NCBI GenBank assembly: GCA_963772065.1
Contig: CAVYVZ010000008.1
Span: 51,526 to 115,525 of the forward strand
Direction of reading: 5' to 3'
Origin: an uncultured Acidobacteriota bacterium
Lineage (GTDB): Bacteria; Acidobacteriota; Vicinamibacteria; Vicinamibacterales; UBA2999
DNA: 64,000 bases
The position numbers and the translations under genes were made by a program. Position 1 is the stretch's first letter, and every line of letters begins with the position of its first letter. The notes under the pieces are model-generated. The model saw only the letters and a program-made list of their open reading frames with translations. It had not been told where the DNA came from and made no database searches. Shown one piece after another: positions 3,941-62,416 of the stretch.

Positions 3941-4618
3941 TCATCTTATCGCGAGCAACCCGGCTTCCTGCAGGCTGACGTAGCGGTGCGCCGTGAGGAT
4001 GATGTGATCGACGACGTGAATGCCCATGACCTGGCCCGCCTCGAGCATGCGTTCCGTCAGCTCGAGGTCGTCGGCGCTCGGCGTCGGATCGCCCGAGGGA
4101 TGGTTGTGAAACAGCACGATGGCGGCGGCCGACGCCACCGCGGCTTCGCGAAACACCTCGCGCGGATGCGCGACCGTTGCGTCGATGGATCCGATCGCGA
4201 TGATCTTGATGCGCAGGATGTGGAGCTTCGAGTCGAGCAGCACGAGGCCGAACTGCTCCACCGGCGACGCGCCGAACTGCGGCAGCAGGTGTCGTGCAAT
4301 CTGGCGGGGCGATGTGAGGCGCGCGCGGGCGATCGGCCCGCGCGTGAGGGTACGGCGGCCGAGTTCGACGGCGGCGAGCACCTGCGCGGCGCGGGCGCGG
4401 CCGATGCCGGATACGTGCATCAGCTCGGCGAGGTCCGTTCGCGTGAGGCCGTAGAGCCCGTCGACGTGCGTGAGCACCTGATTGGCGAGCGCGAGCGCAC
4501 CAGCATCGCGCGAGCCGCTGCCGAGAATCACGGCGAGCAGCTCGTTGTCGCCGAGCGCGCCGGGACCGAGTCGTTCCAGCTTCTCACGCGGCCTGTCGTA
4601 CGGCGCCAGGTGTTTCAT
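3941..4618 (-). CDS. radC: RadC-family JAB/MPN domain protein
   Basis: HhH GIGRARAAQ plus JAMM motif HNHPSGDPTPSADD. ATG 4618 (MKHLAPYDRPREKL) preferred over TTG 4630. Confidence 0.85.
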   Translation of the reverse strand: MKHLAPYDRPREKLERLGPGALGDNELLAVILGSGSRDAGALALANQVLTHVDGLYGLTRTDLAELMHVSGIGRARAAQVLAAVELGRRTLTRGPIARARLTSPRQIARHLLPQFGASPVEQFGLVLLDSKLHILRIKIIAIGSIDATVAHPREVFREAAVASAAAIVLFHNHPSGDPTPSADDLELTERMLEAGQVMGIHVVDHIILTAHRYVSLQEAGLLAIR

Positions 4619-4635
4619 CGGTATACTCAAGCTCT

Positions 4636-5214
4636 ATGCTTCGCTGGTTCGCACCAGCAGTCCTTGCGGCCGCGCTCGCCGCGGGCGCATGCGCGGAACC
4701 CCCGAACACGGAGATGGACCAGGCACAGGGCGCGCTCGACGCCGCCAAGGCGGCTGGCGCCGAACAGTACGCCCGCGACGAGTACCGGGCCGCCGCCGAC
4801 GCGCTCAAGCGCTCCCATGAGGCCGTGGCGCAGAGCGACTACCGTCTGGCGCTCAACCATGCTCTCGACAGCCGGGAGCGCGCGCAGAACGCCGCGCGCC
4901 AGGCGGCCGAAGGCAGGGCCCAGGCGCGCAGTGAAGCCGACCGCCTCATACTGGAAGTCACGGGACCGATCGTGCAGGCCAACGCGCGCCTCGAGACGGC
5001 CCGCCGTGCGCGTGTGCCGCGGTCCCGCCTCGCGGCGCCCGCCCAGGAAGTCGCCACGATCAGTGAAGAGGTGCAAAAGGCGCGCGCGATGCTGAACAGC
5101 GGTCAGTACATCGAAGCGCGAGACCTCCTGCAGGCGCTCAAGTTGCGCATGCAGAAGACTATGGCGGCCATCGACCAGGCGGCGAACCCGCCGTCGGCGC
5201 GGCGGCGGCGCTGA
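4636..5214 (+). CDS. lipoprotein with DUF4398-like helical repeats
   Basis: Signal peptide plus lipobox LAAGAC; Ala/Arg/Glu-rich helical repeats (EQYARDEYRAAADAL). Confidence 0.6.
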   Translation: MLRWFAPAVLAAALAAGACAEPPNTEMDQAQGALDAAKAAGAEQYARDEYRAAADALKRSHEAVAQSDYRLALNHALDSRERAQNAARQAAEGRAQARSEADRLILEVTGPIVQANARLETARRARVPRSRLAAPAQEVATISEEVQKARAMLNSGQYIEARDLLQALKLRMQKTMAAIDQAANPPSARRRR

Positions 5215-5267
5215 GCCGCCGCGCAGAAACTGCCAGGCGTCTCGTCGCCGTACGGCGCAGAATCTCT

Positions 5268-6329
5268 CTACCCTCGGCCCAGGATCGATTCGAGCTCGTC
5301 GCCGTGCGCGGCGCGCATGACGGCGTCCGTTCGCGCGAGACGCCCCTGCTGCACGAGGCGCGCGAGCGACTCCTCGAACGTGAACGAACCCGCCTTCCGC
5401 GTGATCGTGATCTCCTGGTGCAGGTGCTGCAACGCGTTCTTTCGGACGTGCTGCCGCGCGCCGTAGCTGACCATCAGCAGCTCGGCGGCCGGGACCAGCA
5501 CCGCTGACGTGGTCACTACGAGCGTCTGCGTCAGCACCGCGGCCAGCGCCATCGCGAGCTCCTGGCGGACCGCGTTCTGCCGCTCCGCCGGGAAGGCGTC
5601 GGCGATGCGCGACACCGCGGCCGCGGCGTCCGTGGCGTGCACGGTTGCGAATACCAGATGGCCGGTCTCCGCGGCGTTGAGCGCGATCCGCATCGTCTCC
5701 GGATCGCGCATCTCGCCGACCACGATGACATCCGGAGCCTGCCGCAGCGCGGATCGCAGCGCGGTTGGAAAGTCCGGCGCATCGATCCCGATCTCGACCT
5801 GCTCGACGACGCATTTGCCGTGCGGGTGCTCGTACTCAATCGGATCTTCGATCGTGACGATGTGGCGCTCGGCGCGGGCATTGATGTCGGCGACGAGCGC
5901 GGCAAGCGTCGTGGTCTTGCCGGAACCTGTCGGGCCGCACACGAGCACGAGGCCGCGCGGCAGCCCGGCCAGCATGCTGATGTCGTGCGTGAACCCGAGC
6001 GCGGCGAGCGCCGGAATCCGCACCGGCAGCGCCCGGATGGCCGCCGCGGCATGCCCGCGCTCACGATGCAGGTTGACGCGGAGACGGCCCAGGCCGTCCG
6101 GATTCATCGCGAAATCCACCGCCTCGCCGTTGCGATAGCGCGCCTCTGCCGCCGCGGGCACGTGCGGCAGCACGGAGGCTTCGATCCGCTCGGTGTCCAG
6201 CGGCGTATCCGACACGGGAACCAGCCGGCCGCCCGCCCTCACCATCGGCGGCGCCCCTGCCACGAGCAGGAGGTCGGAGCCCTCGAGCTCACGTACGTGC
6301 CGGAGCCAGGTCACGAGGTCGTCTGCCAT
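5268..6329 (-). CDS. pilT: type IV pilus twitching-motility ATPase PilT family
   Basis: Real start MADDLVTWL at 6329 (overlaps upstream TGA as TGATG). Walker A GPTGSGKTT, VGEMRD, ATVHA His box. Upstream part of the 810-aa track ORF is antisense noise. Confidence 0.9.
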   Translation of the reverse strand: MADDLVTWLRHVRELEGSDLLLVAGAPPMVRAGGRLVPVSDTPLDTERIEASVLPHVPAAAEARYRNGEAVDFAMNPDGLGRLRVNLHRERGHAAAAIRALPVRIPALAALGFTHDISMLAGLPRGLVLVCGPTGSGKTTTLAALVADINARAERHIVTIEDPIEYEHPHGKCVVEQVEIGIDAPDFPTALRSALRQAPDVIVVGEMRDPETMRIALNAAETGHLVFATVHATDAAAAVSRIADAFPAERQNAVRQELAMALAAVLTQTLVVTTSAVLVPAAELLMVSYGARQHVRKNALQHLHQEITITRKAGSFTFEESLARLVQQGRLARTDAVMRAAHGDELESILGRG

Positions 6330-12718: not shown

Positions 12719-14350
12719 GTGTCGCGTCTGCTTGCCGTGATGGCCGGTGTGGCCGGCATCGCAGCGTGGACGATGCACGCCCAGCGCGGGCTCGTTCTCA
12801 GTCACTACGACGCGAAGGCGCATCTCGTCGTCGCCCGCCGCGTCTTCGACAATCTCACGCCCGGCTGGCAGCAGATCGGCGCGGTGTGGCTGCCGCTGCC
12901 GCACCTGCTCAACATGGTGCCTACTCAGGTCGACTGGTTCTACCAGACTGGAATCGCCGCGTCCGCGCTCTCGATCCTGAGCTTCTGCATCTGCGCGTGG
13001 GCGACCGCTCGATTGGTCCTTGCGGTGACCGGGTCGGTAGCGGGCGCAGCCGCCTCGGCTGCCGTGCTCGCCCTCAATCCGAACGTCCTCTACCTCCAGG
13101 CCACGCCGATGACGGAGCCGCTGCTCCTCGCCTTGTCGTCGCTGGCAGTGCTGTGGCTGTTCGAGTGGGCGCAGACGGATCGAGACGACGTACCGCGGCA
13201 TCTCGGCCTGGCGCTCGCGGCGCTCGCCTGGACACGCTATGAAGGATGGGCCGTGATTGGCGCTGCCCTCGCTGCTGCGGCGTTCGCGACATGGCGGCGT
13301 GGCGCGTCAGCGCGCGTCGTGGCGATGCGCACGATGCGCCTCGCGTTATGGCCGGGTGTGGCCGTCATCGTGTTTCTGATCAACAGCCGGATCACTGTGG
13401 GCGCCTGGTTCGTGTCGGGCGGCTTTTACGTTCCCGATCCCACGTATCAAGGCAGGCTCGGGCGTTCGTTCGTGGCGATCTGGTGGGGCACGCACCAGTT
13501 GAGCGGCTATGTGATCGAGATCGTCGGGCTGGCCACGGCCGTCGTGCTGATCGCGCGCACGTTCGCCCGGCGGCAGGACGCGGCGCTGCTCCTGCCGACG
13601 GCGCTTCTTGCCGCCGCGGCGCTCCCGTTCTATGCGTTCTTCGAAGGCCACCCATATCGGATCCGCTACATGATGCCCGTCGTCGGCGCGTGCGCCGCAC
13701 TCGCCGGAATCGGCGTCGGGATGTTCGGGCGCAAGGCCGCCGCCCTGGGCTGGGTGCTCGCGATTGGGCTCGTGGCTGCGACCGTCATCGAATCACCGCC
13801 GTGGTCGCGTGACGCCCCGCTTCTGCTGGAGGCGCAGTGGGACCGCCCGAACAGCGCCGCCCGCCGCCGCGTGAGCGCCTGCCTCGCCGGCGAGTACCAG
13901 GGCGAAAAGATCCTCGCGAGCATGGGGTCGCTTGCGCACTACATGCAGGAGCTCTCGCATGAGGGCCTCGACATTTCTGATTTCGTCAACGAAGGGAACG
14001 GCGTGATCTGGGAGATGGCGCTCGAGACGGGGCCGGCGCCGCACGCGGGCTGGATGCTGGTGGAGGAGCAGGCGGAAGGCGGCGACGTTCTCGCGCAACT
14101 CATCCGCCAGCGCCCAAACTTTCTGGACGGCATGACGCGCACCTGTGACGGCGGTGGAGTCACTCTCTATCGTAAGGCAAAAGGCAAAAGGCAAAAGGTA
14201 AAAGGTAAAAGGCAAATGATGATTCCTACGAGTTGCATCGAAGCGAGCGTGCTGCTTCGAAGGCACTCGCGTGAATCACAATTTACCTTTTACCTTTTAC
14301 CTTTTGCCTTGTATCAACGTCCGAATCGCATACCGATGGTGAACGAGTAA
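12719..14350 (+). CDS. GT-C fold (ArnT/PMT-like) membrane glycosyltransferase; C-terminus encoded by repeat element
   Basis: About 10 TM helices then a soluble C-domain. Start GTG 12719 or ATG 12740/12674 (uncertain). No stop before the 14174-14310 element, so the ORF reads through it (KAKGKRQKVKGKRQ...FTFYLLPFAL) and ends inside the convergent gene. Confidence 0.6.
   Translation: MSRLLAVMAGVAGIAAWTMHAQRGLVLSHYDAKAHLVVARRVFDNLTPGWQQIGAVWLPLPHLLNMVPTQVDWFYQTGIAASALSILSFCICAWATARLVLAVTGSVAGAAASAAVLALNPNVLYLQATPMTEPLLLALSSLAVLWLFEWAQTDRDDVPRHLGLALAALAWTRYEGWAVIGAALAAAAFATWRRGASARVVAMRTMRLALWPGVAVIVFLINSRITVGAWFVSGGFYVPDPTYQGRLGRSFVAIWWGTHQLSGYVIEIVGLATAVVLIARTFARRQDAALLLPTALLAAAALPFYAFFEGHPYRIRYMMPVVGACAALAGIGVGMFGRKAAALGWVLAIGLVAATVIESPPWSRDAPLLLEAQWDRPNSAARRRVSACLAGEYQGEKILASMGSLAHYMQELSHEGLDISDFVNEGNGVIWEMALETGPAPHAGWMLVEEQAEGGDVLAQLIRQRPNFLDGMTRTCDGGGVTLYRKAKGKRQKVKGKRQMMIPTSCIEASVLLRRHSRESQFTFYLLPFALYQRPNRIPMVNE
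14174..14310. repeat. word-repeat hairpin element E1 (AAAAGGY heptamers / complement)
   Basis: Left arm 14174-14216 = 6x AAAAGG(C/T). Right arm 14282-14310 = 4x complement. Centre contains a nested hairpin CGAGT..TCGAAGC..GCTTCGA..ACTCG (14229-14269). Confidence 0.85.
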
Positions 14351-19013: not shown

Positions 19014-19071
19014 GCTCACGCGGCGTGTCCGCTTCGCTCGTTGATTCTCGTGACAATCCTTGTCACGTACG

Positions 19072-19162
19072 GGCCACGAAGAACACGAAGGTCACGAAGC
19101 ACACGAAGCGCGTCTTGAATTTGATGATCTTCGTGTCTTCGTGATCTTCGTGGCCTTCGTGG
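19072..19162. repeat. word-repeat hairpin element E2 (NNCACGAAG x4 / CTTCGTGNN x4)
   Basis: Left arm 19072-19108, loop 19109-19128, right arm 19129-19162. Cores pair, dinucleotide spacers do not. Lies between convergent gene ends. Confidence 0.85.
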
Positions 19163-19201
19163 TTGCTTTCGACCAGCGCGGCCATGAGAGTCATCGGAGT
19201 C

Positions 19202-21707: not shown

Positions 21708-22918
21708 GCGGCAGCCTCGGGGTCGTCGAGCTCGCCGTACACGCGCTCCAGCTGCGACAGCAGATGTCGCCGTCTCACCTGGTAGCGCTCGTCGTCGATG
21801 CGGCCCGCGCGGCGTTGCTCCTCCACTTTCACCAGCTCGCCGTACAGCGAGTCGCGATGCGCCACGAGCCGCCGGCGCTCGTCGCGCCGATCGTCGCGGC
21901 GCAATGCGAGCCACACCCCGACGGCGACGACTAACGCGGCGATGCCGAGGGCGACGTTTCGCGGCCAGGTGCTGTGGTGCGGCAGGTTCGTCAGCTGGAT
22001 CGTCAGCTCCGATCCAGCGGCGAGGGCGCCGCCGCTGGCGCTCTGGAAGGGTGTGCCGTCTGCCGTCTTCACCTCTCCGCGATCGGGTAGTTGCGGCGAC
22101 GTGAGCTCGAGAGCGCCGACTTTTTCCGCGAATACGGCAACCCGCTGCAGCGGCACAGGAAATGTCTGCCGGACGGTTGCGGCACCGCCGTCGTAGAGAA
22201 GCTGAAAACCGATCTGGATCGACGACGTGCCGGGCGGAAACGGACCGGCAATCGTGACGCGATCGCCCTGCGCCGTGGCACCGGCGAACGAGCCCTGCAT
22301 CACGCGCACGCCGCCGGCGCCGGCCGGCAGATCGACGATCAGCGGTCCTCCGGTGTCCACGCGCGTGCGAGCCGTGTTCACGACATCGAGCAGGTAGAAG
22401 ACGCTCAGCGCGTCGTTCTGGAATTCGAAGACGAATCGCGAGTCGCTCCCGAAGACCACCGACCCTCTCACGGCCGGCGCGCTCGCGGCGTCGGCGGCCT
22501 CCTTGTCGCGGCGCGCGCGCGCCCGCTCGAGACCGGCGATGAGGATGACGCGGACGCCTCCGCTGCCGGGCACCTGGAACGGCTGCGACGTCAGCGATTC
22601 GCCATCGACGACGGCATGGGCCGTGGCGCTCGCGCCTTTGGGCAGCCCGGTGATCCGTACGCGGCCGGAGTCGTCTGTTGTCGCCTTGCGCGTCGCGCCG
22701 CCGGCGGAAACCGTGACCTCGTGGCCGATGATGTTGTTGCCGAGAGACTCGCGTACGAGCCGCACCGAGACGTCGCCGTCCGGCAGTTCGGGAGCCGGAA
22801 GCGCCCGTCCGGCGATCTGCGACGGATCCGGCATGTTGATCTGCGCCAGCAGATGGCCCAGGGCCCAAGGCTCGAGCCCCAGGGCCCAAAGCCCAAGGCC
22901 CAGGGCCCAAGGCCTCAT
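21704..22918 (-). CDS. CarboxypepD_reg-like domain membrane-anchored protein embedded in the ccm cluster
   Basis: Signal peptide MRPWALGLGLWALGLEPWALG encoded by a heptamer array. Ig-like VSVRLV...GHEVTV...TDDSGRVRITGL. C-terminal TM plus charged coiled tail. Confidence 0.6.
   Translation of the reverse strand: MRPWALGLGLWALGLEPWALGHLLAQINMPDPSQIAGRALPAPELPDGDVSVRLVRESLGNNIIGHEVTVSAGGATRKATTDDSGRVRITGLPKGASATAHAVVDGESLTSQPFQVPGSGGVRVILIAGLERARARRDKEAADAASAPAVRGSVVFGSDSRFVFEFQNDALSVFYLLDVVNTARTRVDTGGPLIVDLPAGAGGVRVMQGSFAGATAQGDRVTIAGPFPPGTSSIQIGFQLLYDGGAATVRQTFPVPLQRVAVFAEKVGALELTSPQLPDRGEVKTADGTPFQSASGGALAAGSELTIQLTNLPHHSTWPRNVALGIAALVVAVGVWLALRRDDRRDERRRLVAHRDSLYGELVKVEEQRRAGRIDDERYQVRRRHLLSQLERVYGELDDPEAAA
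22856..22914. repeat. tandem heptamer array E3 (GCCCARG x8) inside coding sequence
   Basis: 8 consecutive 7-nt units with a central CTCGAG. On the minus strand it encodes the (WALGxxx) signal peptide of the 21704-22918 gene. Confidence 0.85.
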
Positions 22919-22925
22919 CACGCCT

Positions 22926-23534
22926 TTAGCCGTGAGCCTTGAGCTCTGAGCTTTCATTGAGCTGCTGACCGCAGGCTTTGCAGAACCGCGCGTCGCTGTC
23001 ATTCGCCGTACCGCACGCGCAGGACGATCGGAGGCGGGCAGGCGGGACCTTCAGTCGGGTGGCGAGCTCACGCTCGATCTCGCTGCGGTATCCCGCGCCG
23101 CGATCGAGCTGCCGCAGCAGACCGGAGGCGCGGGCGCGCAAGCGCGCGCTCACCTCCGTAAAATCGCCGTCCGCCACTTTCCCCATTGCCCGATCGAACT
23201 CGAGATCCTTGATGGCGCGCAGCACCAGCGTCTTCTCGCGCTCGAGCGCATTGCGCGTCCGTCCGCCGAGGAGCTGCCCGCCCCGCGCCCGCTGCTCGCC
23301 CCCGAGCGGACCAAGCATCCGCCAGGCGGCGATGCCCACGCACGCCGCCGCGCCGACGATCAGGCTGAGGAGAACGACGGCGGCCGGAGTGGCCTCCCGC
23401 GTCACGAACACGACGGCCGTGGCGCCGGCCAGCCCCGCCAGCGTGAAGAACTGCCAGGGCTGGAGTTGCTCGTGCGAGGGCGCGGCATCCGCCGCGTCAC
23501 CCTCGCGTCGATCAATCGAGGCTTCGGAGCTCAT
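22926..23534 (-). CDS. two-TM membrane protein with C-terminal zinc-ribbon
   Basis: TM helices FFTLAGLAGATAVVFV / VVLLSLIVGAAACVGIAAW; CACG...CKACG zinc-ribbon at the C-terminus. Confidence 0.5.
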   Translation of the reverse strand: MSSEASIDRREGDAADAAPSHEQLQPWQFFTLAGLAGATAVVFVTREATPAAVVLLSLIVGAAACVGIAAWRMLGPLGGEQRARGGQLLGGRTRNALEREKTLVLRAIKDLEFDRAMGKVADGDFTEVSARLRARASGLLRQLDRGAGYRSEIERELATRLKVPPARLRSSCACGTANDSDARFCKACGQQLNESSELKAHG

Positions 23535-27330: not shown

Positions 27331-28661
27331 ATGCACACCCGACGCTTCGCCGTCGCGGTCCTCCTGTGGACCTGCGGACTGGGCGCCATCGTGGCGTACC
27401 CCACTCTCACGCGCGCATCATCGCAAGCCAACGAGCGAGGCCTCGTAGCCGCGACGGCTCATGCCGCCAAGCTGATCAAGCAGGGTCAACGCATCTTCCG
27501 TTATGACACGTTCGGCGACGAGCAGTTCTGGGGCGGAGAGCTTCAGCTGCATCGCGCCATCGCGGGTGCCCGGTTTGGCGGGGTCGGCCCCGGCCTCAGT
27601 CCGGCGCAGGCGCTGGGCGTCGGGTTGAAAGTGGACTCCGACGCACTACCCTCCGAGCTGCTCCGTGCGATTCGCGCAGGAACGGTCAACTTGAAAGATC
27701 CCGCGACCACGCTGACCCTCCTGCGGCTCAACTCGGTCGTGGGTCTGACCGGCTTCTTCGATGGCCCACGCCTCTCGTCAGTGGGCATACAGTGCTCGCT
27801 CTGCCACTCCGATGTCGACAACCGGGTGGCGCCGGGCATCGGCCGGCGGCGGGACGGGTGGCCGAACCGCGATCTGAATGTCGGCGCGATCATCGCTCTT
27901 GCGCCGGATCTCTCGCCGCTCACATCACTCCTCGGCCTGAGCGATGCAACTCTGCGATCGGTGCTCAAGAGCTGGGGCCCCGGGCGATTCGACGCGTCGG
28001 TGATTCTCGACGGCAAGGCGTTTCGTCCCGACGGAAAGACGGCGGCGGTCATGATTCCCGCGGCGTTTGGTCTCGCCGGCGTAAACCTGCACACGAACAC
28101 GGGGTGGGGCGGCGTGTCGCACTGGAACGCATTCGTCGCGAACCTCGAGATGCACGGCCAGGGCACGTTCTACGATCCGCGTCTGAACGACGAGGTCCGC
28201 TTCCCCGTGGCGGCCCGCGCCGGGTTCGGCAACGTGCGCGCGGAGCGCGACCTGATCACGTCGAAGCTGCCGGCACTCCAGCTCTATCAGCTGGCCCTCG
28301 AGGCGCCGAAGCCGCCGGAGGGGAGCTTCGATCGAGAGGCGGCGAGGAACGGGAAGCGTGTGTTCAACGGCCGCGCGCGGTGCGCGACTGCCACGTTCCG
28401 CCGATCTTCACCGAGCCTGGCTGGAACATGCACACGGCGGCCGAGATCGGCATCGACGATTTTCAGGCGCAGCGCGCGCCGGATGGCCACTATCGCACGA
28501 CGCCGCTCCGTGGCCTCTTCACGCGGCTGAAGGGTGGCTTTTACCACGATGGGCGCTTCAAGACGTATGACGCCGTCGTGGACCACTACCAGCGTGTGTT
28601 CGGCCTGGGGCTCAGCGCGGACGAACGGCGGAATCTCGTGGAGTACTTGAAATCGCTGTGA
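27331..28661 (+). CDS. di-heme cytochrome c (peroxidase/MauG-like family), apparent -1 frameshift in the second heme motif
   Basis: Signal peptide; first CSLCH. Second motif reads RCATAT.. in frame 1 and ..DCHVPPIF in the next frame; adding one base near A 28387 gives CA(N/D)CH. Confidence 0.7.
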
Positions 28662-29215
28662 GCCCGAGCTCGCGCAGCATCGCGTAGACGAGAGCCACCG
28701 GGAGACCGACGACGTTCGAGGACGAGCCGTCGATACGGGTGACGAAGCGGGCGGCCAGCCCCTGGACGGCGTAGGCGCCCGCTTTGTCGAAGGGCTCTCC
28801 TGTTGCGACGTACCACGCAACCTCCTCTTCGGAGAGTGGCGCGAACTCTACGTCGGTCACCGCAACCCGCGTCAGCATGCGCGCTGCCCGCGCGAGCGTC
28901 GACCGCCGTCAGCACCTGATGGCGCCGCGCCGACAGAAGCCGCAGCATACGCGACGCATCGGCCGCGTCGTTCGGCTTGCCGAGGATGTGATCGTCCGCG
29001 ACGACGGTGGTGTCGGCTGCGAGCACGACGCGGTCGCCCGCGTCAGCAAGAACGGCGCGCGCCTTGGCGTCCGCCACACGCCGCACGTACTGTTCGGGCG
29101 ATTCGCCGACGTGGACGGATTCATCGACGTGTGCGGGCTGGACGTCGAATTCGAGTCCCGCGGCACGCAGCAGCTCGGCGCGCCGCGGCGACGCCGACGC
29201 GAGCAGAAGCGTCAT
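28612..29215 (-). CDS. maf: Maf-family nucleoside-triphosphate pyrophosphatase, apparent frameshift
   Basis: [16 protein letters not shown]..., then second-frame [41 protein letters not shown] (minus) 28887-28889 is the likely site. Confidence 0.8.
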
Positions 29216-29226
29216 AATGTGAAGCG

Positions 29227-29559
29227 ATGATACCGGTTCAACGGCTGGTGCCGGAGGCGCTTGCCGAGGTGCTTCGAAAGGCGCCGCTGAGCGCCGAGAA
29301 GGTGGCATTCGCCTGGCGCACGGCCGTTGGTGCGTCAGTCGATCGGGTCAGCAGCGTTCGTCTGGATGGCCACACGCTGCGGGTCCGCGCCCGGGACGCG
29401 AGCTGGCAGCGCGAGATCGAGCGCTCGGCGTCGCTCATCTGCGCGCGTCTCGACGCGCTCCTGGGAAAGGATGTCGTCCGCGGTCTGGACGTCAGTTTGG
29501 GGTCTGGCCCCTATGGTGCCAGGTCTCCCCAAGAACCCTCAGGAGGCCTGGCACCATAG
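29227..29559 (+). CDS. DUF721 (DciA-like) protein; 3' end runs into hairpin E4
   Basis: [40 protein letters not shown] pattern typical of DUF721. Last about 20 aa encoded by the repeat. Confidence 0.6.
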
Positions 29560-29572
29560 GGGCCAGACCCCA
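29498..29572. repeat. perfect 26-bp inverted repeat hairpin E4
   Basis: TGGGGTCTGGCCCCTATGGTGCCAGG (29498-29523) / exact reverse complement (29547-29572). 23-nt loop contains AGGAGG. The last arm base is the A of the thiolase ATG. Confidence 0.9.
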
Positions 29573-30753
29573 TGAACGAGTCCGTCATCATCTCCGCCGT
29601 CCGCACGCCCACGGGAAAGTTCCTCGGCGCGCTGAAAGGGTTCACGGCGCCCGAGCTCGGCGCAATGGTGGTGCGCGAAGCCGTTCGCCGCGCCGGCATC
29701 GAGGCGCAGTCGGTGGAGGAATGCATCCTGGGCAACGTCGTCTCGGCTGGCCTCGGCCAGGCGCCGGCGCGGCAGGCCGCGCTCCGCGGCGGCCTCTCCG
29801 ATCACGTGGCGGCGCTCACGATCAACAAGGTGTGCGGCTCGGGCCTCAAGGCCGTGATGCTCGCCGCGCAGGGCATCGCCACGGGCGACATCGACATCGC
29901 GGTCGCCGGCGGCATGGAGTCGATGAGCAACTGCCCGTACCTGCTCACGCGCGTCCGCGACGGCTTGCGCATGGGACACGGCGAGGTGATCGACTCGATG
30001 ATCAACGACGGCCTCTGGTGCTCGTTCGAGCAGTGCCACATGGGACACGCCGGTGAGGTGATCAGCACCGAGTACAACATCGCGCGCGCACCGCAGGACG
30101 AGTACGCGTATCACAGCCACCGCAAGGCGGCCGAGGCGACGCGGGCCGGGCATTTCAAAGCGGAGATGCTGCCCATCTCGATCCCACAGAAGAAAGGCGA
30201 TCCGATCGTCATCGATGGCGATGAATCCATTCGCGCCGACACCACCGCTGAGAGCCTTGCCGCGCTGAAGCCGGCCTTCAAGAAGGATGGGACCGTTACC
30301 GCCGGCAACGCTCCGCCGGTCAACGATGGCGCTGCAGCCCTGGTGGTGATGTCGGCCGCGCGCGCGCAACAGCTCGGCGTCAAGCCGATGGCGCGCATCG
30401 TCGGCCAAGCCACGAGCGGTCTCGCGCCGAAGTACGTCCTGATGACACCGGTCGAAGCGGTGCGCCGCCTGTCGAAGAAGATTGGCTGGAAGCTCGAGGA
30501 CGTCGATCTGTTCGAGCTGAACGAAGCATTTTCCGTTCAAGCGCTCGCCGTGCTGAAGGAGCTCGGGATCGATTCCACGAAGGTGAACGTGAACGGCGGC
30601 GCCGTGGCGCTCGGCCACGCGATCGGTTCGAGCGGCGCGCGCATTCTCACCACGCTGCTGTACGCACTGCAGCATCGCAACCTGAAACGCGGGATCGCAA
30701 CACTTTGCCTCGGGGGAGGCAACGGTGTGGCGCTGGCGGTCGAACGAACTTAA
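29572..30753 (+). CDS. acetyl-CoA C-acetyltransferase (thiolase II)
   Basis: 393 aa; [12 protein letters not shown] active-site Cys, [26 protein letters not shown]. Confidence 0.92.
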
Positions 30754-30841
30754 CGTTCCAGGTTCCAGGTTCCCCGTTCCAGGTTCGTGTTCTTTGTTCG
30801 GTTCTCGGTTCTCAGTTCTCGGTTCTCGGTTCTTTGTTCGT
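30754..30841. repeat. left arm of four-helix-bundle cassette 1 (GGTTC-rich 7-nt words)
   Basis: Starts immediately after the thiolase TAA. Imperfect reverse complement of 31257-31349 (shared CCAGGTTCC..., GGTTCGTGTTCT...). Confidence 0.8.
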
Positions 30842-31136
30842 CCGTCACGTTGCATCGCCTGAGCGATGTAGCCGCGATCGACGGCGTCCCTCAGGTGCCC
30901 GCAACACTCCTTGAGCGAAGCGCGGGCGTTGACGACCATGCGTCCGAAATCTCTCGGGTAAAAGCGCGCGAATCCTTCCTCGATCTGGCTCACCGCCGAC
31001 GCGGCGGACTCACGCGTTGATCGCGGAGTTTGAAGTCAGCGGCGATGGAACTCGTCCCCACAACCTCGTACACCGCGAGTTTGAAGCGATACGTGAGCTG
31101 CCACGCTCGAAGATCCTCAACACGGCCGGCGGTCAT
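30842..31136 (-). pseudogene. four-helix-bundle protein (Avd / 23S rRNA IVS protein family), decayed copy
   Basis: MTAGRVEDLRAWQLTYRFKLAVYEVV...FKLRDQ | TRESAASAVSQIEEGFARFYPRDFGRMVVNARASLKECCGHLRDAVDRGYI. Frameshift at AA 31017-31018. Helix 4 is missing and the frame stays open through the arm (RTKNREPRTENREP...). Confidence 0.65.
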
Positions 31137-31256
31137 CCGATCCGCAAGTGCACATGGAATGCCGCGACGATCTGGGCCCGAATTCGCCGACAGGATGCCA
31201 AAGTACGCAGATTGCAAGCGCGTCAGCGTCAGTTCGGTACGATCAATTTGCGTCGA

Positions 31257-31349
31257 GACCAGAACCCCGAACCCAGAACCGCGAACCAAGAACCAAGAAC
31301 AGAACGCAGAACACGAACCCGGAACCTGGAACCGGGAACCTGGAACCGG
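31257..31349. repeat. right arm of cassette 1
   Basis: GAACC-rich words, reverse complement of 30754-30841. Ends 10 nt before the convergent sulfatase stop. Confidence 0.8.
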
Positions 31350-31358
31350 AGTGACGCG

Positions 31359-33073
31359 CTAGCGCTTCCTGAGCCGCGCGAGCAGGTCCGACGCGGCGTC
31401 GAACGTCGGGTCGAGTTGCAGCGCGGCCTTCAGGTGCTGCGTGGCCTCGGTCACGTTGCCCAGGGCGCTGAATGCTCTCGCCAGCAGGAACCGCGCGTCG
31501 GGACCCGCGTCTTCGGCTTCGACCAGCGGCTCGAGAATCGCGATGGCCCCGCGTGGATTCTTCGTGACCAGCAGCGCTGACGCGAGCCGTTCGATCAGCG
31601 CGCGATGGCGCAGCCCGCCGGCGCGCGCATTCCCGAGGATGGTCACGGCCTCCTTCGCCCGCCCCTCACCAATCAACAGCGCGCCCATGGCGTCGACCGC
31701 CGCCGCGAAGTCGGGACGCTGATCCACGATCGAGTGCAGCCGGCGGATGGCGGAATCCGGATCGGTCCCCGCCATCCCGAGCGCGGCTTCGTATTCGAGG
31801 TGAAGCGGCAGAAGCCGTTTCGGGTCGTCCTCCACTCGCGACGCGCCAAGGCGCCACGAGGCGGACCCCACGTAGCCGAGAGACCGCAGCCGGGCGCGCG
31901 CCTCCGGCTCGGCGAGCGAGACGGCCGGATCGGCGCGGGCGGCTCTCGTGCGCGCCTTCACCGTCGCGTCACGCATGGCCATCAGGCGCCGCGGTTCGGA
32001 CCCTGCCAGATTGTTGCGCTCGCCCGGATCGGAGCCGAGGTCGTACAGCTCGGGAATCGGGAGATCGATGTACTTCCAGTCCCTCGCGATCACGCCCGTG
32101 AGCGGCGCTCCACCACGCATCAGCGCGGCGTCGAGCGCTTCGAAGTAAATCGGCTGGTCATCGAAGCGCTCGTCAGACACGAGCGTGCGCAACGACGGCC
32201 CGTCGAAGGCGCGCGGTGTGATGCCGAGCAGATCGAGCACGGTCGGGGCGATGCTGACGTGCGCGACGCCTGGCGTCGTGACCGTCCGCCGCGGAACGCC
32301 CGGACCGGCGACAATCAGCGGAACACGAAGCGTGCTCTCGTACGCGAATAGGCCATGCGTCCGCTCGCCATGCTCGCCGAGGCTCTCACCGTGGTCCCCG
32401 GTGACCACGACCAGCGTGCGACCGAGCAGGTCCTTGTGTGCGGGCGATGACAGAAACGCACCGAGCGCCGCATCCGCGGAGGCCACCGCGGCGTTGGTAC
32501 GATTCGTACGGCGGCAGCGGGTCGCGCAGGTGCGCCCATGCAAACCACGGTTCGCGTTCCCGCGCGATCCACGCCGACGCGGCGGCAAGGACGCGCGCGG
32601 CGGGCCTGGCGCCGCGTCGGAGCGCCGCCGCTGCCGATGCGCCGGGCCTGTCCTGCGTGACGTCGTAGCGGTCGTCGTAACTCGTGGAAGCCCTGCGAGA
32701 GGCCGAAGCGCGCGTCGAGCGCGGATGCGCCTACGAAGGCGCCGGTTCGATACCCCGCCTCGGAGAGCAGTTCGGCGATCGTGACCACCGTGTCGTCGAG
32801 CCGGAAGCCGTTGTTGCGAACGCCGTGGGCCGGCGGCACCAGGCCCGTGAGGATCGACGCGTGCGACGGCAGCGTGAGCGGTGTGTGCGCGTATGCGCGC
32901 TCGAACCGCGTGCCGCGTGCGGCTAGCGTGGTCAGCGCGGGCGTCAGCTTCTCGGAAACGCGATCCGCCCTGAGCGCGTCGATGGTGACAAGGAGAACAT
33001 TCGGCCGAGCGGAATCCTGCGCCGCAACGACCGCGACGAGCGCAAAAGGAAGGACACAGCTCAGCCTGCCCAC
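31359..33073 (-). CDS. sulfatase-family protein with C-terminal TPR domain; two apparent frameshifts
   Basis: LLVTIDALRADR, TPLTLPSHASILTG; middle frame YDDRYDV...PWFAWAHLRDPLPPYE; then VVVTGDHGESLGEHGE and TPR-like tail. Shifts near 32679-32680 (TT) and 32496-32497 (CC on the coding strand). Confidence 0.8.
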
Positions 33074-33119
33074 GCGCGCAGTTTACCAGCCCGCAGATCG
33101 GAGAGCGACGAGCAACGAG

Positions 33120-34658
33120 CTACGAACGACGATCGGCCGACGCGGCGCGGGCGGGGATCGGCTTCACCTCGAGATCCGACACCGCCGGCCCGTTGATCAC
33201 CCGTCCCTCGGGCGAGAATCGCGAGCCGTGGCATGGACAGTCCCACGACTGCTCCGCGCGGTTCCACGCCACGTCGCAGCCGAGGTGCGTGCACACGGGC
33301 GAGACGGCGTGCAACGTTCCCTCTCGATCGCGGCACACCGCAGCCTTGCCGCCCGGTCCCGCGAGAATGCCTCCCTCGCCCGGACGCAGATCCTCGGGCG
33401 ACGTCACGTCGGCATTCGTGTTCGTGAGACGGTCCTTCACGAGGTGTGCGGGGAATGCCAGGTTCTCGGCGACGTAGTCGTAGGCGGACGCAATTGGCTT
33501 CACGCGGGTGGCGTCGAACAGCTCCGAATACGGGTTCTTCCGTCCCGAGACGTGGTCGGTGAACATCATGCCGGCCAGCGTCCCGTAGGTCATACCGTTG
33601 CCCGCAAACCCCGTGGCGACGAACACGTGACTGGAACCGCTGTTCGGGCCGATGAATGGCAGACCGTCCACGGACTCGATGATCTGTCCGGACCAGTGAT
33701 ACTTCACGGGCCCGCCCTCGAACCGGACGCGAGCGAACTCGAGCAGGTTGTCGTAGTGCACCTCCGTCTGCGTTTCCTCGCCGGTCCGGTGATCCTCGCC
33801 GCCGATGATGAGATATGTCCTGCCCTCGACGTCGTGCGTGCGCGTGTAGTGATACGGATCCACGGTGTCCCAGAACAGTCCTCGGACGTAGTCCGGCTCC
33901 ACTTCAATCGCGAGCGCATAGCTCCGATAGGCGGCGATCTTGGTGTGCAGCAACACGCGATTGTTGACCGGGACGTTGGTCGCCACGAGCACGTGCCGCG
34001 CGGTGATCCGACGCGCATCCGTCTCGACGCGGCACGGCTCCCCCTCGTGAACGCCGGTCACCTTCGTCTGCTCGAAGATCTCGACACCACGGCGTGAGGC
34101 CTCCTTCGCGAGGCCTGCGAGATAGGCGGTCGCATGCACCTGCCCCTGACCGTCCCACCTGACGCCGCCCTTCGTGGCAAACGGCAGCGGCACCGCATCG
34201 ACCCATTCGACCGCACAGCCAGCACGGCGGGCGGCATCGAGCTCGTCGGCGAGCGTGGCCAGATGAGCCGCGTCCTCGGTGTAGAGGTATCCGGGCGTGC
34301 GCTCGAAGCGAGCACCCAGCGTCGATGCCGCAAGGCTCTCGATCTGATCGATGGCATCGCGCTTCGATGCGCTCACGAGGCGCGCACCTTCGAGGCCGAA
34401 GTCCTTGATCACCGTCTGATAGCGCGCATCGATCGCTTCGGTGAGATGGCTCGTGGTATGGCCTGACTCGCCGCTGCCGATCCGGTCGTGCTCGAGGACG
34501 GCGACGCGAAGACCTCGACCGCTGAGCAGCACGGCCGCGGTGAGACCGGTCACACCGCCGCCGACGATGGCGACGTCGAGATCGAGATCCCGGGAGAGCG
34601 CGGAAAACGCGGGCGTCTGAGCTGTGGCGCGCCAAAGCGATTCGGTATCAGGAATCAT
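33120..34658 (-). CDS. FAD-dependent oxidoreductase fused to a Rieske [2Fe-2S] domain
   Basis: DVAIVGGGVTGLTAA dinucleotide fold; C-terminal CTHLGC...CPCHGSRF Rieske motif. ATG 34658 preferred. Confidence 0.85.
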   Translation of the reverse strand: MIPDTESLWRATAQTPAFSALSRDLDLDVAIVGGGVTGLTAAVLLSGRGLRVAVLEHDRIGSGESGHTTSHLTEAIDARYQTVIKDFGLEGARLVSASKRDAIDQIESLAASTLGARFERTPGYLYTEDAAHLATLADELDAARRAGCAVEWVDAVPLPFATKGGVRWDGQGQVHATAYLAGLAKEASRRGVEIFEQTKVTGVHEGEPCRVETDARRITARHVLVATNVPVNNRVLLHTKIAAYRSYALAIEVEPDYVRGLFWDTVDPYHYTRTHDVEGRTYLIIGGEDHRTGEETQTEVHYDNLLEFARVRFEGGPVKYHWSGQIIESVDGLPFIGPNSGSSHVFVATGFAGNGMTYGTLAGMMFTDHVSGRKNPYSELFDATRVKPIASAYDYVAENLAFPAHLVKDRLTNTNADVTSPEDLRPGEGGILAGPGGKAAVCRDREGTLHAVSPVCTHLGCDVAWNRAEQSWDCPCHGSRFSPEGRVINGPAVSDLEVKPIPARAASADRRS

Positions 34659-46208: not shown

Positions 46209-46284
46209 TGGTGGCCAGGGACGGAATTGAACCGCCGACACCGTGATTTTCAGTCACGTGCTCTACCAACTGAGCTACCTGGCC
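46209..46284 (-). tRNA. tRNA-Phe (GAA), CCA encoded
   Basis: Manual fold: acceptor GGCCAGG/CCTGGCC, D-arm GCTC-AGTTGGTA-GAGC, anticodon stem CGTGA/TCACG with loop CTGAAAA, T-arm GGCGG-TTCAATT-CCGTC, 76 nt. Confidence 0.9.
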
Positions 46285-60039: not shown

Positions 60040-60228
60040 GTCGTTCACGCTTCTGTGTTCTCTCTGCTCGGTTCGTGTTCAGGTTCGGTTCGGTTCGGTT
60101 CGGTTCGTCGTTCGCATTCATCGTTCGTCGTTCGGAGGCCCGAACCGTGAAGGTTCGAACCCAGAACCCGAACCGAACGATGAAGCTGAAGATGAACCGA
60201 GCAGAGAGAACGCAGAAGCGTGAACGAC
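60040..60228. repeat. ORF-less long hairpin element E8 sharing termini with cassette 2
   Basis: Outer 38 nt of the arms match 37/38 (GTCGTTCACGCTTCTG[T/C]GTTCTCTCTGCTCGGTTC). GGTTC words inside; apical CGAACC-GTGAA-GGTTCG. Begins 1 nt after the ppiC-like stop and contains the GTG start of the next gene. Confidence 0.85.
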
Positions 60229-60600
60229 GTACGCCTTGACGTGTGGCTGGATGTCGCCTGTCTTTTCAAGACCCGCTCCGAGGCGAAGCGGGCCTGCGAG
60301 GGCGGCAAGGTGGAGGTCAACGGCGAGCACGCGAAGCCGCACCGTGCCGTTCGCGAGGGCGACGAAATTCGCGTGAGCCGTGGATTCGGCCGCCACCAGA
60401 TCGTCGTCGTGCGCGGCGTCATGGACGCGCACGTGAAGAAGTCCGACGCCCGCACGCTCTACGAAGACCTCACCCCCCGACCCACGCCTGAAGAAGTCGA
60501 GATTCGCCGCATGGATCGCATCTATCGCGCGGCCGCCGCGGCCGCCGGCACCGATCGCCGCAAGCGGCGGGAGATTCGGAGTGCGAAGCAGCGATACTAG
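60220..60600 (+). CDS. S4-domain RNA-binding protein (Hsp15-like)
   Basis: VRLDVWLDVACLFKTRSEAKRACEGGKVEVNG S4 motif; basic C-terminal tail. Confidence 0.75.
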   Translation: MNDVRLDVWLDVACLFKTRSEAKRACEGGKVEVNGEHAKPHRAVREGDEIRVSRGFGRHQIVVVRGVMDAHVKKSDARTLYEDLTPRPTPEEVEIRRMDRIYRAAAAAAGTDRRKRREIRSAKQRY

Positions 60601-60601
60601 A

Positions 60602-60722
60602 CGTCGTTCACTCTTCTGAGTGCACGCTTCTCGGTTCGTGTTCAGCTTCGCCGTTCGATTCCTCGTTCGCGGTTCGCGGTTCGCGGTTCGTGGTTCTTGT
60701 TCTCTGTTCGGGGTTCGTGGTT
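60602..60722. repeat. left arm of four-helix-bundle cassette 2
   Basis: Starts 2 nt after the S4 gene TAG. (GCGGTTC)n words. 26/26 nt CGCTTCTCGGTTCGTGTTCAGCTTCG shared with the reverse complement of the right arm. Confidence 0.85.
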
Positions 60723-60838
60723 CCCAAATCCTGCGCGCCGCGATGCCTTCCCGCGTGGCAGATCTTCGCATCCGCGAAGTGCTTTGTGTGTTTTCAACCA
60801 GCAATCCGTGCGGCATTATCCGTGCACTATGAGTCCGC

Positions 60839-61395
60839 ATGGGAGTTCATCGTTTCACCGAATTGCGAGCGTGGCAGGTGTGCAACACCTACAAGCGAGC
60901 CATCTACCGGCTGTGCGCGGCCGGCGCGTTGTCGCGTGATTTTGAACGGCGAGACCAGCTCGAACGATCAGCCGCGAGCCGTGTGCGCATCTGTCGGAAG
61001 GGTTTGGTCGATTCAGCCCGCCAGATTTCGCGCGCTACTGCGTGATGGCGCGGTCGTCACTGATGGAGTCGCAGAACCACCTGATCGACATTGTCGACCG
61101 AGGCCACATCACCGAGGACGCGAGAGTCGAACATAATGCGATGGCCGAAGCGGCCCTCGAGGAAGTGACTGGCCTGATGGAGTACCTTCAGTCGCCCGAA
61201 GCGCTCCGAAATGCGCGTCGAGCGCGCGAACGGAGAATTGAGAACCGCGCGAAACGCGCGAACCAGGAACGCGAACCCCGAACCAAGAACCGCGAACCTC
61301 GAACAGCGAACCGCGAACCCCGAACAGAGAAGCGAACCCCGAAGCTGAACACGAACCGAGAAGCGAGAAGGCGAAGCGTGAACGACGACGAATGA
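60839..61395 (+). CDS. four-helix-bundle protein (Avd / 23S rRNA IVS protein family) with arm-encoded (NREPRTx)n tail; one apparent frameshift
   Basis: FTELRAWQVCNTYKRAIYRL / RRDQLERSAAS | PCAHLSEGFGRFSPPDFARYCVMARSSLMESQNHLIDIVDRGHI / AMAEAALEEVTGLMEYL. CC 60979-80 should be CCC to stay in frame. Stop directly after the right arm. Confidence 0.75.
61240..61387. repeat. right arm of cassette 2
   Basis: (GAACCGC)n words, reverse complement of the left arm. Terminus ...GTGAACGACG pairs with CGTCGTTCAC at 60602. Confidence 0.85.
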
Positions 61396-61410: not shown

Positions 61411-62395
61411 GTGCCGCGCAACCAGGAAGTCATCCGGCAGTGGAAGGTGCTGCACGCGCTGGAGTCGTCGCGGCATGGCGCCTCCATCGACTCGCTCGGC
61501 GGGCGATCTCGAGGTGACGACGCGGACGATCCGGCGCGACCTGGCGGCGCTGCAGGAAGCGGGGTTTCCGCTCTTCGACACGCGCGACGAGGACGGCCGC
61601 GTGCGCTGGCGGCTCGACGGCCAGGTGCTCAAGGGCCTCGATACCGGCTTCACCCTCGGCGAGCTGTGCGCGCTCTATTTGAGCCGGAACCTCCTCGAGT
61701 CGGTCGCCGGCACACCGTTTCAGCGCGACCTCGGTCACGCCTTCGCGCGGCTTCAGGGGGCGCTCTCCCCTCGCATGCGTCAGTTTCTCGATCGGCTGCC
61801 TGGTGTGCTCGCGGCCAAGCCGGGGCCGCGCGCGCGCGGCGGCGAGGCGGCGTCGGACATCGTGGCGCGCCTCCTCGAGGCGACCCTGCACTTTCGCATC
61901 GCGACGATGCGGTATCACTCGGTATCGAGCGCGAAGATTAAAGACTATGTGATCCACCCATACCGTCTCGCGTTCGCGCAAGGCGGGCTGTACCTGCTGG
62001 CGTACGTCCCCGCGTACGAGGACGTGCGCACGTTCGCGGTCGACCGCATCAAGGCGGTGTCTCTCGAGAAGCAGACGTTCACGCCGCGTCGCGACCTGCC
62101 GGAAGACGTCTTCGCCAATTCGCTGGGCGTGAACACGGGGCCGCCCGAACGCGTGGAGATCGCCTTCGACGCGCAGATCGCCCCCTACATCCGCGCGCGC
62201 GTCTGGCACGCATCGCAGGAGCTGCGCGACGAAACCGACGGCGCGCTGACGCTCACGATGCACGTGTGTCACGATTGGGCGTTGCGAAGCTGGATCCTCA
62301 GCTGGGGCCCGTTTGCCCGTATCCTCTCTCCTGCAAAGCTTGCTGCCCAGATCCGCGAAGACCTCGACGCCGCGAAAGCGAAATATGGGCCATAA
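61411..62395 (+). CDS. HTH-WYL domain transcriptional regulator; apparent frameshift in the HTH
   Basis: GTG 61411 PRNQEVIRQWKVLHALESSRHGASIDSL | GDLEVTTRTIRRDLAALQEAGFPL, then WYL core (HPYRLAFAQGGLYLLAY) and a WCX-like C-terminus. Removing one G at 61498-61503 restores the frame. Confidence 0.8.
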
Positions 62396-62416
62396 GCCAT
62401 GAGCCGTAAGCCATGA
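62389..62416. repeat. tandem heptamers E10 (GCCRTRA x4) bridging stop and start codons
   Basis: GCCATAA GCCATGA GCCGTAA GCCATGA. Unit 1 holds the WYL TAA. Units 2-4 form a 5-codon mini-ORF (ATG AGC CGT AAG CCA TGA) whose stop overlaps the next ATG (62413). Confidence 0.8.

Follow-up and report, generated by a model that had tools for sequence, protein, structure and literature searches.

Proteins of the PF05635 family (23S_rRNA_IVP) have earlier been known from only two genetic contexts, the intervening sequences (IVSs) of ribosomal RNA (rRNA) and the diversity-generating retroelements (DGRs), in which Avd is the accessory protein. The present analysis concerns a member of this family that stands free of both, in a 64,000-nucleotide stretch of DNA from an uncultured Acidobacteriota bacterium of the Vicinamibacterales (UBA2999; NCBI GenBank assembly GCA_963772065.1, contig CAVYVZ010000008.1, positions 51,526 to 115,525 of the forward strand), hereafter the window, which has a G+C content of 66%. 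At 30754-31349, between convergent genes for a thiolase and a sulfatase, the remnant of an open reading frame (ORF) for a four-helix-bundle (4HB) protein is bracketed by two inverted arrays of tandem heptamers (copy 1), and a sister cassette (copy 2) lies at 60602-61387. With moderate confidence, copy 1 is explained as a dead hairpin-bracketed 4HB cassette, a free-standing counterpart of the rRNA IVS, which probably now acts just as a long stem-loop between convergent genes.

The rRNA IVSs of Leptospira, Coxiella burnetii, and others have the same basic plan, a PF05635 ORF (S23p/23S_rRNA_IVP) in a stem-loop formed by terminal repeats. In Coxiella, the terminal stem is cut by RNase III, tandem heptamers (GACAGAT) are present in two to three copies, the number of which varies among strains, and the S23p ORF is decaying (PMC4990558). 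The cassettes of the window differ from IVSs in that they lie between protein-coding genes, have arms made of 70-120 nt of tandem heptamers as opposed to a 28-bp stem, carry a putative internal sigma-54-type promoter, and encode, in live copies, a protein under purifying selection, whereas that of Coxiella is probably not made. Genes for 23S_rRNA_IVP have also been noted in cas loci (PMC3936711; PMC10910872). The DGR protein Avd (4DWL), a small, basic, nucleic-acid-associated pentamer that is PF05635-like (PMC10053308), shares a homologous fold with the 4HB protein (TM score 0.83) at a Foldseek sequence identity of 6%. A DGR was nonetheless rejected, because no reverse transcriptase gene and no template/variable repeats lie next to either copy, the immediate neighbors being thiolase, sulfatase, S4, and WYL genes.

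In REPIN/RAYT systems, a REP-associated tyrosine transposase gene lies between inverted REPs, and REP doublets are dispersed. These systems can be likened to the cassette in having a single small gene in inverted short repeats, ORF-less hairpins of the same repeat in other intergenic regions, and a long, vertically inherited residence that turns over slowly, but the 4HB protein is devoid of HUH/Y1 features, and the arms are tandem arrays of variable copy number, not a single palindrome. Tandem arrays of similar unit length are also on record: in Geobacter metallireducens, paired tandem hepta- and octanucleotides on opposite strands, at variable distance, are putative sites of a global regulator (PMC2700814), and in cyanobacteria and Beggiatoa heptamer arrays are abundant near gene ends (PMC4679880). 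The units of both differ in sequence from those of the cassette arms and are not linked to 4HB genes. Miniature inverted-repeat transposable elements (MITEs) are characterized by target duplications and by a cognate transposase, neither of which was found for the cassette. Although the protein family is known, its free-standing architecture thus appears to be undescribed; full-text searches that covered few subscription journals returned no description of a 4HB module of the arm-ORF-arm type, of its inversion, or of a sigma-54-type promoter in it.

Copy 1 consists of the following features, in which P0131 is the closest database relative of its ORF and TRF denotes Tandem Repeats Finder:

30754-30841, minus strand: arm beside the thiolase stop, the downstream GAACC-sense arm relative to the ORF (inverted repeat 30755-30839; TRF period-7 arrays 30755-30786 and 30798-30833)
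30782-30792, plus strand: subterminal box GGTTCGTGTTC in the left arm of copy 1 (exact match)
30843-30844, no strand: internal deletion junction, with loss of the roughly 40 codons of helix 4 and the basic C-terminal helix (comparison with P0131)
30841-31014, minus strand: C-terminal segment of the 4HB ORF remnant (RESAASAVSQIEEGF...DRGYIAQAMQRDG), continuing into the arm (tblastn, translation, PF05635)
31013-31017, no strand: frame break from the lack of one base between RDQ and RESAAS (RDQLRESAAS in intact relatives)
31017-31136, minus strand: N-terminal ORF segment (MTAGRVEDLRAWQLTYRFKLAVYEVVGTSSIAADFKLRDQ), start codon 31136-31134 (tblastn, translation)
31149-31164, minus strand: sigma-54-type -24/-12 element CGGCATTCCATGTGCA (GG-N10-GC), 13 nt 5′ of the ATG (family-wide motif scan)
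31203-31217, minus strand: upstream box TTGCAATCTGCGTAC, family form GCA-N5-CTGCGTAC (recurrence in subfamily leaders)
31257-31349, minus strand: arm beside the sulfatase stop, the upstream GGTTC-sense arm relative to the ORF (inverted repeat 31262-31346; TRF 31259-31349)
31309-31319, minus strand: subterminal box GGTTCGTGTTC in the right arm of copy 1 (exact match)

The original prediction had placed two arms at this locus, one at the thiolase TAA and one by the sulfatase stop, with an ORF homologous to that of copy 2 between them, and this plan is borne out. The repeat finder returned an inverted repeat, 30755-30839/31262-31346, whose arms of 85 nt are 82% complementary and lie 422 nt apart, and both arms are period-7 tandem arrays according to TRF, built of GGTTCNN/NNGAACC heptamers. 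The left arm begins directly 3′ of the stop codon of an acetyl-CoA acetyltransferase-like (thiolase) ORF (29572-30753), and the right arm ends 9-10 nt short of the convergent sulfatase stop at 31359. Folded as RNA, the 614-nt element reaches -308 kcal/mol, compared with an average of -240 for shuffled sequences (z = -9.8), and the minimum free energy fold pairs the arms. Such an ORF-enclosing terminal inverted-repeat stem is a feature that copy 1 has in common with an IVS. IVS membership was rejected on location, since copy 1 lies between the thiolase and sulfatase genes and not in helix 25 or 45 of 23S rRNA; no rRNA was found either in the 64 kb of the window with Rfam gathering thresholds or at 30600-31500 in E-value mode. 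Hence, copy 1 is not filed as an IVS, and the comparison speaks to the likely mechanism, not to membership. The sole Rfam family match in the window is a tRNA gene at 46212-46284 on the minus strand.

Between the arms, three-frame translation reveals the minus-strand remnant of a 4HB ORF, in two frames offset by one missing base, which includes the peptides quoted in the original prediction. Once this one base is restored, the product matches both PF05635 (65.8 bits, cut-off 33.8) and TIGR02436, 'four helix bundle protein' (56.3 bits, cut-off 24). The products of copies 1 and 2 are 47% identical in amino acids (pairwise E = 2e-27), and the two copies are collinear across arm, leader, ORF, and arm in a DNA alignment.

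Copy 1 is a gene remnant and not a functional PF05635 member. P0131, which is 97% identical to it over the shared part, has the same sulfatase/thiolase context, a sulfatase-side gene preceding it and a convergent gene following it. Where P0131 reads ...RGYITQAMQRD-AASLAGEALKEIAGLIDYLQSPEAERNASRIRERRAERRRA-RTNKEPRTEN, copy 1 reads ...RGYIAQAMQRD-G-RTKNREPRTEN, a loss of about 40 codons (~120 nt) at 30843/30844 that is defined at the protein level, against the P0131 protein. As had been predicted, helix 4 is missing: the TIGR02436 profile match stops at 84/109, and, with the deletion and the frame break at ~31013-31017, the four helices are not contained in one ORF. Since helix 4 and the basic helix are deleted and the frame may be broken as well, no functional protein can come from copy 1. 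It also holds true that the ORF exits into the GAACC-sense arm and has no stop inside the element; its C-terminal frame reads through the arm (30754-30841) into the thiolase antisense strand and continues as ORF 29539-30993.

The frameshift that had been offered as a further sign of decay is present, as one missing base, but is unreliable as evidence, because other genes of the window are split as well. The Maf gene is divided across frames between profile positions 2-105 and 118-186 and the sulfatase gene between 1-101 and 201-301, the WYL regulator gene is likewise split, and copy 2 lacks one base after 60978 in comparison with the intact relatives P0001-P0003. These single-base frame breaks fall at 60976-60980 (4HB copy 2), 61463-61503 (WYL), 28586-29308 (Maf), and 31359-33073 (sulfatase). 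The window assembly probably carries indel errors, and the single-base frameshift of copy 1 may therefore be one of them, which means that frameshifts in this assembly should not be counted as pseudogenization without re-sequencing. The ~120-nt deletion is not an assembly error of the indel type. Moreover, P0131 itself starts in the wrong frame, at another place than copy 1, which suggests that the orthologous lineage is genuinely decaying. The opposition of a decayed copy to an intact reference is thus correct in its first half, in that copy 1 is truly degraded, but not in its second, the reference copy being frameshifted too. Programmed frameshifting was rejected, given that the copies break at different places, no slippery heptamer is present, close relatives are intact, and housekeeping genes are split in the same way.

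The second half of the window holds the sister cassette together with an ORF-less hairpin that has the same ends:

60602-61387, plus strand: sister cassette, copy 2 (arms 60602-60723 and 61259-61387; ORF from 60839)
60041-60229, no strand: ORF-less 189-nt mini-hairpin with termini GTCGTTCAC...GTGAACGAC (-129.9 kcal/mol, z = -14.7), occupying the SurA-S4 gap

The fold of the copy-2 element has a z-score of -11.8, and a sigma-54-like element, CGGCATTATCCGTGCA, lies at 60811-60826, 13 nt 5′ of the ATG. The outer ~45 nt of the copy-2 subfamily are a fixed heptamer series, GTTCACN CTTCTNN GTTCTCN NTTCTCG GTTCGTG TTCA.., in place of which the outer part of copy 1 has GTTCCNG units. Both types of arm lead to the box GGTTCGTGTTC, which occurs exactly once per arm in the two copies, at 30782 (+) and 31309 (-) in copy 1 and at 60633 (+) and 61347 (-) in copy 2. 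The mini-hairpin has the termini of copy 2 and the box as well (at 60070), its ends being ~80% identical to those of copy 2 as judged by eye. Its 3′ end (GTGAACGAC) provides the start codon of S4, and in relatives without the hairpin the native S4 start is this same 9-mer. The box is present in 23 other loci, in many of them as inverted pairs; with at most one mismatch allowed, the window contains 11 matches, compared with 1.1 expected.

The bracket of inverted arrays is not peculiar to the window. A search with the copy-2 protein yielded more than 700 relatives of 64-93% identity and 142-230 aa, mostly from soil metagenomes and Acidobacteriota metagenome-assembled genomes (MAGs), and their extra length is a variable tail (E-P-x-T-x-N-x), the translation of a GAACCNN array. 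A scan with one genome per species, in which loci were retrieved by patterns from one subfamily, gave 80 loci from Vicinamibacterales, Terriglobia, Bacteroidota, Acidimicrobiia, and one Desulfobacteraceae MAG. At each locus, the 450 nt upstream of the ORF were aligned to the reverse-complemented 450 nt that follow it, with the same comparison shifted by 1.4-2 kb within the same loci as the null. The median inverted-repeat score was 30.5 versus 11 for the shifted comparison, and 74 of the 77 testable loci (96%) exceeded the 95th percentile of the null. In these lineages, the inverted-array bracket thus belongs to the gene family as such. Among 59 loci in all, the arm period is 7 in 38, 8 in 14, and 9 in 7. 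Usually, the upstream arm has GGTTC or GGTGC as its core and the downstream arm GAACC or GCACC, and the arms of Terriglobia are of opposite polarity, with GAAACTC upstream and GAGTTTC downstream.

The arms are unstable in length and at the same time mirror images of each other. In six assemblies with an identical protein (P0127) and leader, arm lengths differ by 7-8-nt steps, the upstream (GTTCGGY)n array varying in 7-nt steps and the downstream array varying independently. Complementarity between the arms, measured in 38 loci, is 97-99% in the TTC core; in the spacers it is 65-78% in register and 35-43% when the arms are slid by one or two units. Given that the in-register match of the spacers exceeds the slid match, the arms are true mirror images, with the core more constrained than the pairing. 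Tandem arrays of this kind can mislead repeat, CRISPR, and ORF callers.

In the leader, a GG-N10-GC element (TGGCAC-N5-TTGCW, at least 8 of 11 positions) is present in 42 of 81 loci, compared with 2.5% of random control stretches taken in these loci, and in 41 of these 42 the C of the -12 GC lies 12-14 nt 5′ of the start codon. Inspection of copies 1 and 2 showed no Shine-Dalgarno sequence between the -12 element and the ATG, and a promoter scan found no sigma-70 consensus in either cassette of the window. Sigma-54 promoters conventionally initiate ~12 nt downstream of the -12 GC. The distance of 12-14 nt to the ATG accordingly points to a 4HB mRNA that would be essentially leaderless and would not include the 5′ arm. 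About 38 nt upstream of the -24 element, the leaders of six further loci (L004, L005, L007-L009, and L013) have, like copy 1 at 31203-31217, the box GCA-N5-CTGCGTAC, which could be an activator or IHF-type site. The GGCAY-N5-RTGC sequence had at first been suggestive of a small RNA hairpin by virtue of C-G/T-A covariation; this candidate was dropped in favor of a -24/-12 promoter, because in more distant members a TTGC that is not palindromic takes its place, with the GG-N10-GC spacing and the distance from the start unchanged.

The protein of live cassettes is well conserved. The fold was examined on an intact relative, P0003, of which the AlphaFold2 (AF2) model (pLDDT 86.7) assigns 93-117 to helix 4 and 120-153 to a long, basic C-terminal helix. 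With this model, Foldseek retrieved 2GSC (the pentameric XCC0516; TM score 0.90), which is also matched by sequence (E = 2e-10), 2RLD (BT_0352; 0.83), and Avd. Orthologous 4HB pairs have dN/dS ratios of 0.03-0.18, with 0.04 for copy 2 and its counterpart in the syntenic locus L001. For the window and L001, dS is 1.37 (near saturation) for the 4HB gene and 0.76-1.15 for the neighboring S4, SurA, and HEAT genes, and dN is 0.05 and 0.11-0.18, respectively, which indicates that the cassette has diverged alongside its neighbors while its protein is more constrained than theirs. Strong purifying selection, as judged from these substitution rates, is unlike what would characterize a purely selfish, decaying ORF. 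On inspection, the HEPN-like Rx4-6H motif is absent (R-x8-H). No family was found for the intact 4HB relatives in PADLOC or PHROGs, and a link with phages is not supported, as viral contigs gave one weak match of 27% identity.

The cassettes flip, and they are gained or lost at orthologous sites. L001 shares its gene order with the window (sigma factor, hypothetical gene, TPR, HEAT, SurA, S4, cassette, WYL, UPF0182), and its 4HB ORF is flipped relative to S4 and WYL, so that the interior aligns with the window in sense and the flanks in antisense. Among ~15 syntenic groups of the 80 loci, flanks are swapped in L020/L021 and L032/L033, and L001/L010 and L007/L057 match at one flank. Recombination between the arms is the simplest cause of these flips, and independent insertion in the opposite orientation may also account for them. 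The original prediction had taken the conserved orientation of ORF and arms as evidence of a propagating element; this argument is weak, since an arm-X-arm′ structure is unchanged by inversion, whether of X or of the element as a whole, and the polarity in Terriglobia is opposite.

Presence and absence were assessed by a metagenome scan with the S4 protein. Most SurA-S4-WYL relatives have gaps of 50-140 nt and no cassette, the carriers being only the window, L001, L089, and L010; L088 and L090, with S4 proteins 85-88% identical, are without it. The SurA-S4 mini-hairpin is found in five relatives (L103, L123, L145, L150, and L153) and absent from L001 and more than 25 others, and boxed mini-hairpins also occur in the flanks of L007 and L045. 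Cassettes occupy conserved positions in different species. No target-site duplication was found when filled sites were compared with empty ones. In L001 (at 4229-5809), L088, L089, and L090, WYL is separated from the cassette or S4 by a peptidase S10 gene that is absent from the window and most others; its patchy distribution makes it a second insertion/deletion polymorphism at this locus.

Array hairpins of other units are present in the window as well. At 14168-14316, six copies of AAGGCAA/AAGGTAA are paired with four of TTTACCT in an AT-rich heptamer hairpin whose 65-nt loop forms a hairpin of its own (z = -10 for the plus and -12 for the minus strand, the minus-strand fold being slightly better). 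A short-loop hairpin of 9-nt units, four copies of CACGAAGNN versus three of CTTCGTGNN, occupies 19071-19165, and its CACGAAG/CTTCGTG unit is that of the S4-WYL intergenic hairpin in two unrelated metagenome contigs (L125 and L134). Period-7 arrays with no clear inverted partner lie at 22855-22956 (GGCCCAA), possibly at the 5′ end of a minus-strand gene, at 62385-62416 (ATGAGCC/ATAAGCC), possibly at the 3′ end of the WYL gene, and at 33092-33137 (GAGCGAC). In close relatives (L090 1945-2100, L120 320-440, and L088 1295-1370), the same intergenic positions are taken by hairpins of unrelated units (GGCACAGA, GGTACAG), from which it follows that array hairpins turn over fast and are a lineage-wide feature independent of any one sequence.

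As comparison shows, a live cassette consists of an outer inverted repeat of fixed heptamers up to GGTTCGTGTTC, inner arrays in which the number of units rises and falls, a leader of ~100-150 nt with a putative internal sigma-54-type promoter, placed such that transcription would start near the start codon, and a 4HB protein of ~120 aa with a basic C-terminal helix, the frame often drifting into the stop-poor GAACC array. In read-through transcripts from the neighbors, on either strand, the arms would pair as a 70-100-bp stem, and by analogy with RNase III at the rRNA IVS this stem may insulate, process, or terminate the read-through RNA. The cassette's own mRNA would begin inside, at the putative sigma-54 promoter, without the 5′ arm. 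As DNA, the arms would be recombinogenic, so that the interior can flip, and they would outlast the ORF. Copy 1, with arms and promoter-like element persisting and the interior shrinking, would then be an intermediate on the way to ORF-less mini-hairpins. Several observations weigh against this account. The spacers pair less well than the TTC core, and the inner arrays may differ in unit and length between arms, and both of these facts suit a repeated protein-binding motif no less than a stem. On the sense strand, no excess of G.U over A.C mismatches was found (120 versus 152, with 448 of other kinds), so there is no positive sign of selection on sense-RNA pairing. The 4HB gene is the sole ORF of the cassette, which encodes no transposase or recombinase. 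In addition, as loci were retrieved with patterns of one subfamily, the figure of 96% may not extend to all PF05635 members, for example the Avd genes of DGRs.

The stem is not the only way to read the arms, and the stem, binding-site, and transposon-like readings are not mutually exclusive. The main rival reading, possible though somewhat unlikely, is that the arms are arrays of binding sites, the GGTTC-type cores of which would be read, on DNA or RNA, by a pentameric 4HB ring or by another factor, such as the activator of the sigma-54 promoter. With a ring like TRAP or HutP, proteins that recognize short repeats with spacers of variable length, the cassette arms and ORF-less hairpins would make up a regulon of sites, and inversion would be secondary. 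Consistent with such arrays, the core is 97-99% conserved and the spacers vary, the same core recurs at period 7, 8, or 9 in different lineages, the box is conserved in both arms between subfamilies that are 47% identical, and G.U bias is lacking. The 5′ array, furthermore, stops ~100-170 nt short of the promoter-like element, a spacing typical of enhancers, and the 4HB protein is strongly conserved with a long basic helix; its structural relatives are homopentamers, Avd binds nucleic acid (PMC10053308), and similar paired hepta-/octanucleotide arrays have been read as regulator sites in Geobacter (PMC2700814). Plain site arrays, however, do not require the mirror order that the arms keep far beyond the core, and the ORF-less hairpins of the window include unrelated units (AAGGCAA, CACGAAGNN), hence no single protein reads them all.

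A transposon-like element, with the arms as terminal inverted repeats (TIRs) and the mini-hairpins as MITE-like forms moved in trans by a host or unlinked enzyme or by the 4HB protein itself, is clearly unlikely, even though the terminal series GTTCACN-CTTCTNN-...-GGTTCGTGTTCA is kept at unrelated loci in different genomes, the TIRs are conserved between copies (outer series and GGTTCGTGTTC), and full and miniature forms share their ends. Variable presence at orthologous sites, the association of different arm types with different 4HB paralogues in one genome (L018/L029 and L016/L036, for example), and the exact abutment of elements on neighboring stop or start codons would also suit such an element. 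Against this stand a cassette without transposase, recombinase, or HUH motif and without PADLOC or PHROGs matches, the lack of a target-site duplication and of near-identical copies (those of the window being 47% identical), positions conserved across species, and a dS like that of the neighbors; the mini-hairpins are equally explicable by in-place decay, of which copy 1 is an illustration. The original claim of a propagating element is accordingly right in that this is one real family and not a product of chance (74/77 loci, a shared box, presence/absence), and 'propagating' is an overstatement, because there is no transposase or recombinase and no target duplication, the copies are old (47%), and their positions are conserved. 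That the ORF and arms are unlinked, an ordinary small gene beside low-complexity repeats or terminator hairpins of a high-GC lineage, is barely credible. ORF-less heptamer arrays and array hairpins are indeed frequent in the window and its relatives, and among the simple repeats of long unit in prokaryotes, heptanucleotides are reported to be the most common (cited in PMC4679880), but flanking inverted arms at 74/77 4HB loci in several phyla (null median 11), a conserved box common to the arms of diverged subfamilies, and fold z-scores of about -10 to -15 have already largely refuted it.

A broader proposal is that free-standing PF05635 proteins are trans-acting partners of genome-wide tandem-repeat hairpins, each paralogue recognizing the core and box of its own arm type, and serve to maintain, move, or regulate the cassette and the ORF-less hairpins at gene ends. 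It is offered tentatively, as a rather doubtful extension. If true, it would amount either to a system of the REPIN/RAYT kind that has no known transposase fold or to a TRAP-like ring regulator under sigma-54 control, and the rRNA IVS would be the same element landed in an rRNA helix.

The family-level pattern is of higher interest than copy 1 itself, which is of moderate interest and is an intermediate caught between a full cassette and a bare hairpin. The 'four helix bundle protein' (PF05635/TIGR02436) is among the commonest unexplained small proteins of soil Acidobacteriota, Bacteroidota, and other phyla, and in the sampled lineages its free-standing genes are almost always part of a fixed module of arrays and box, putative promoter, and constrained protein. 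This module offers an origin for many of the tandem-repeat hairpins of these genomes.

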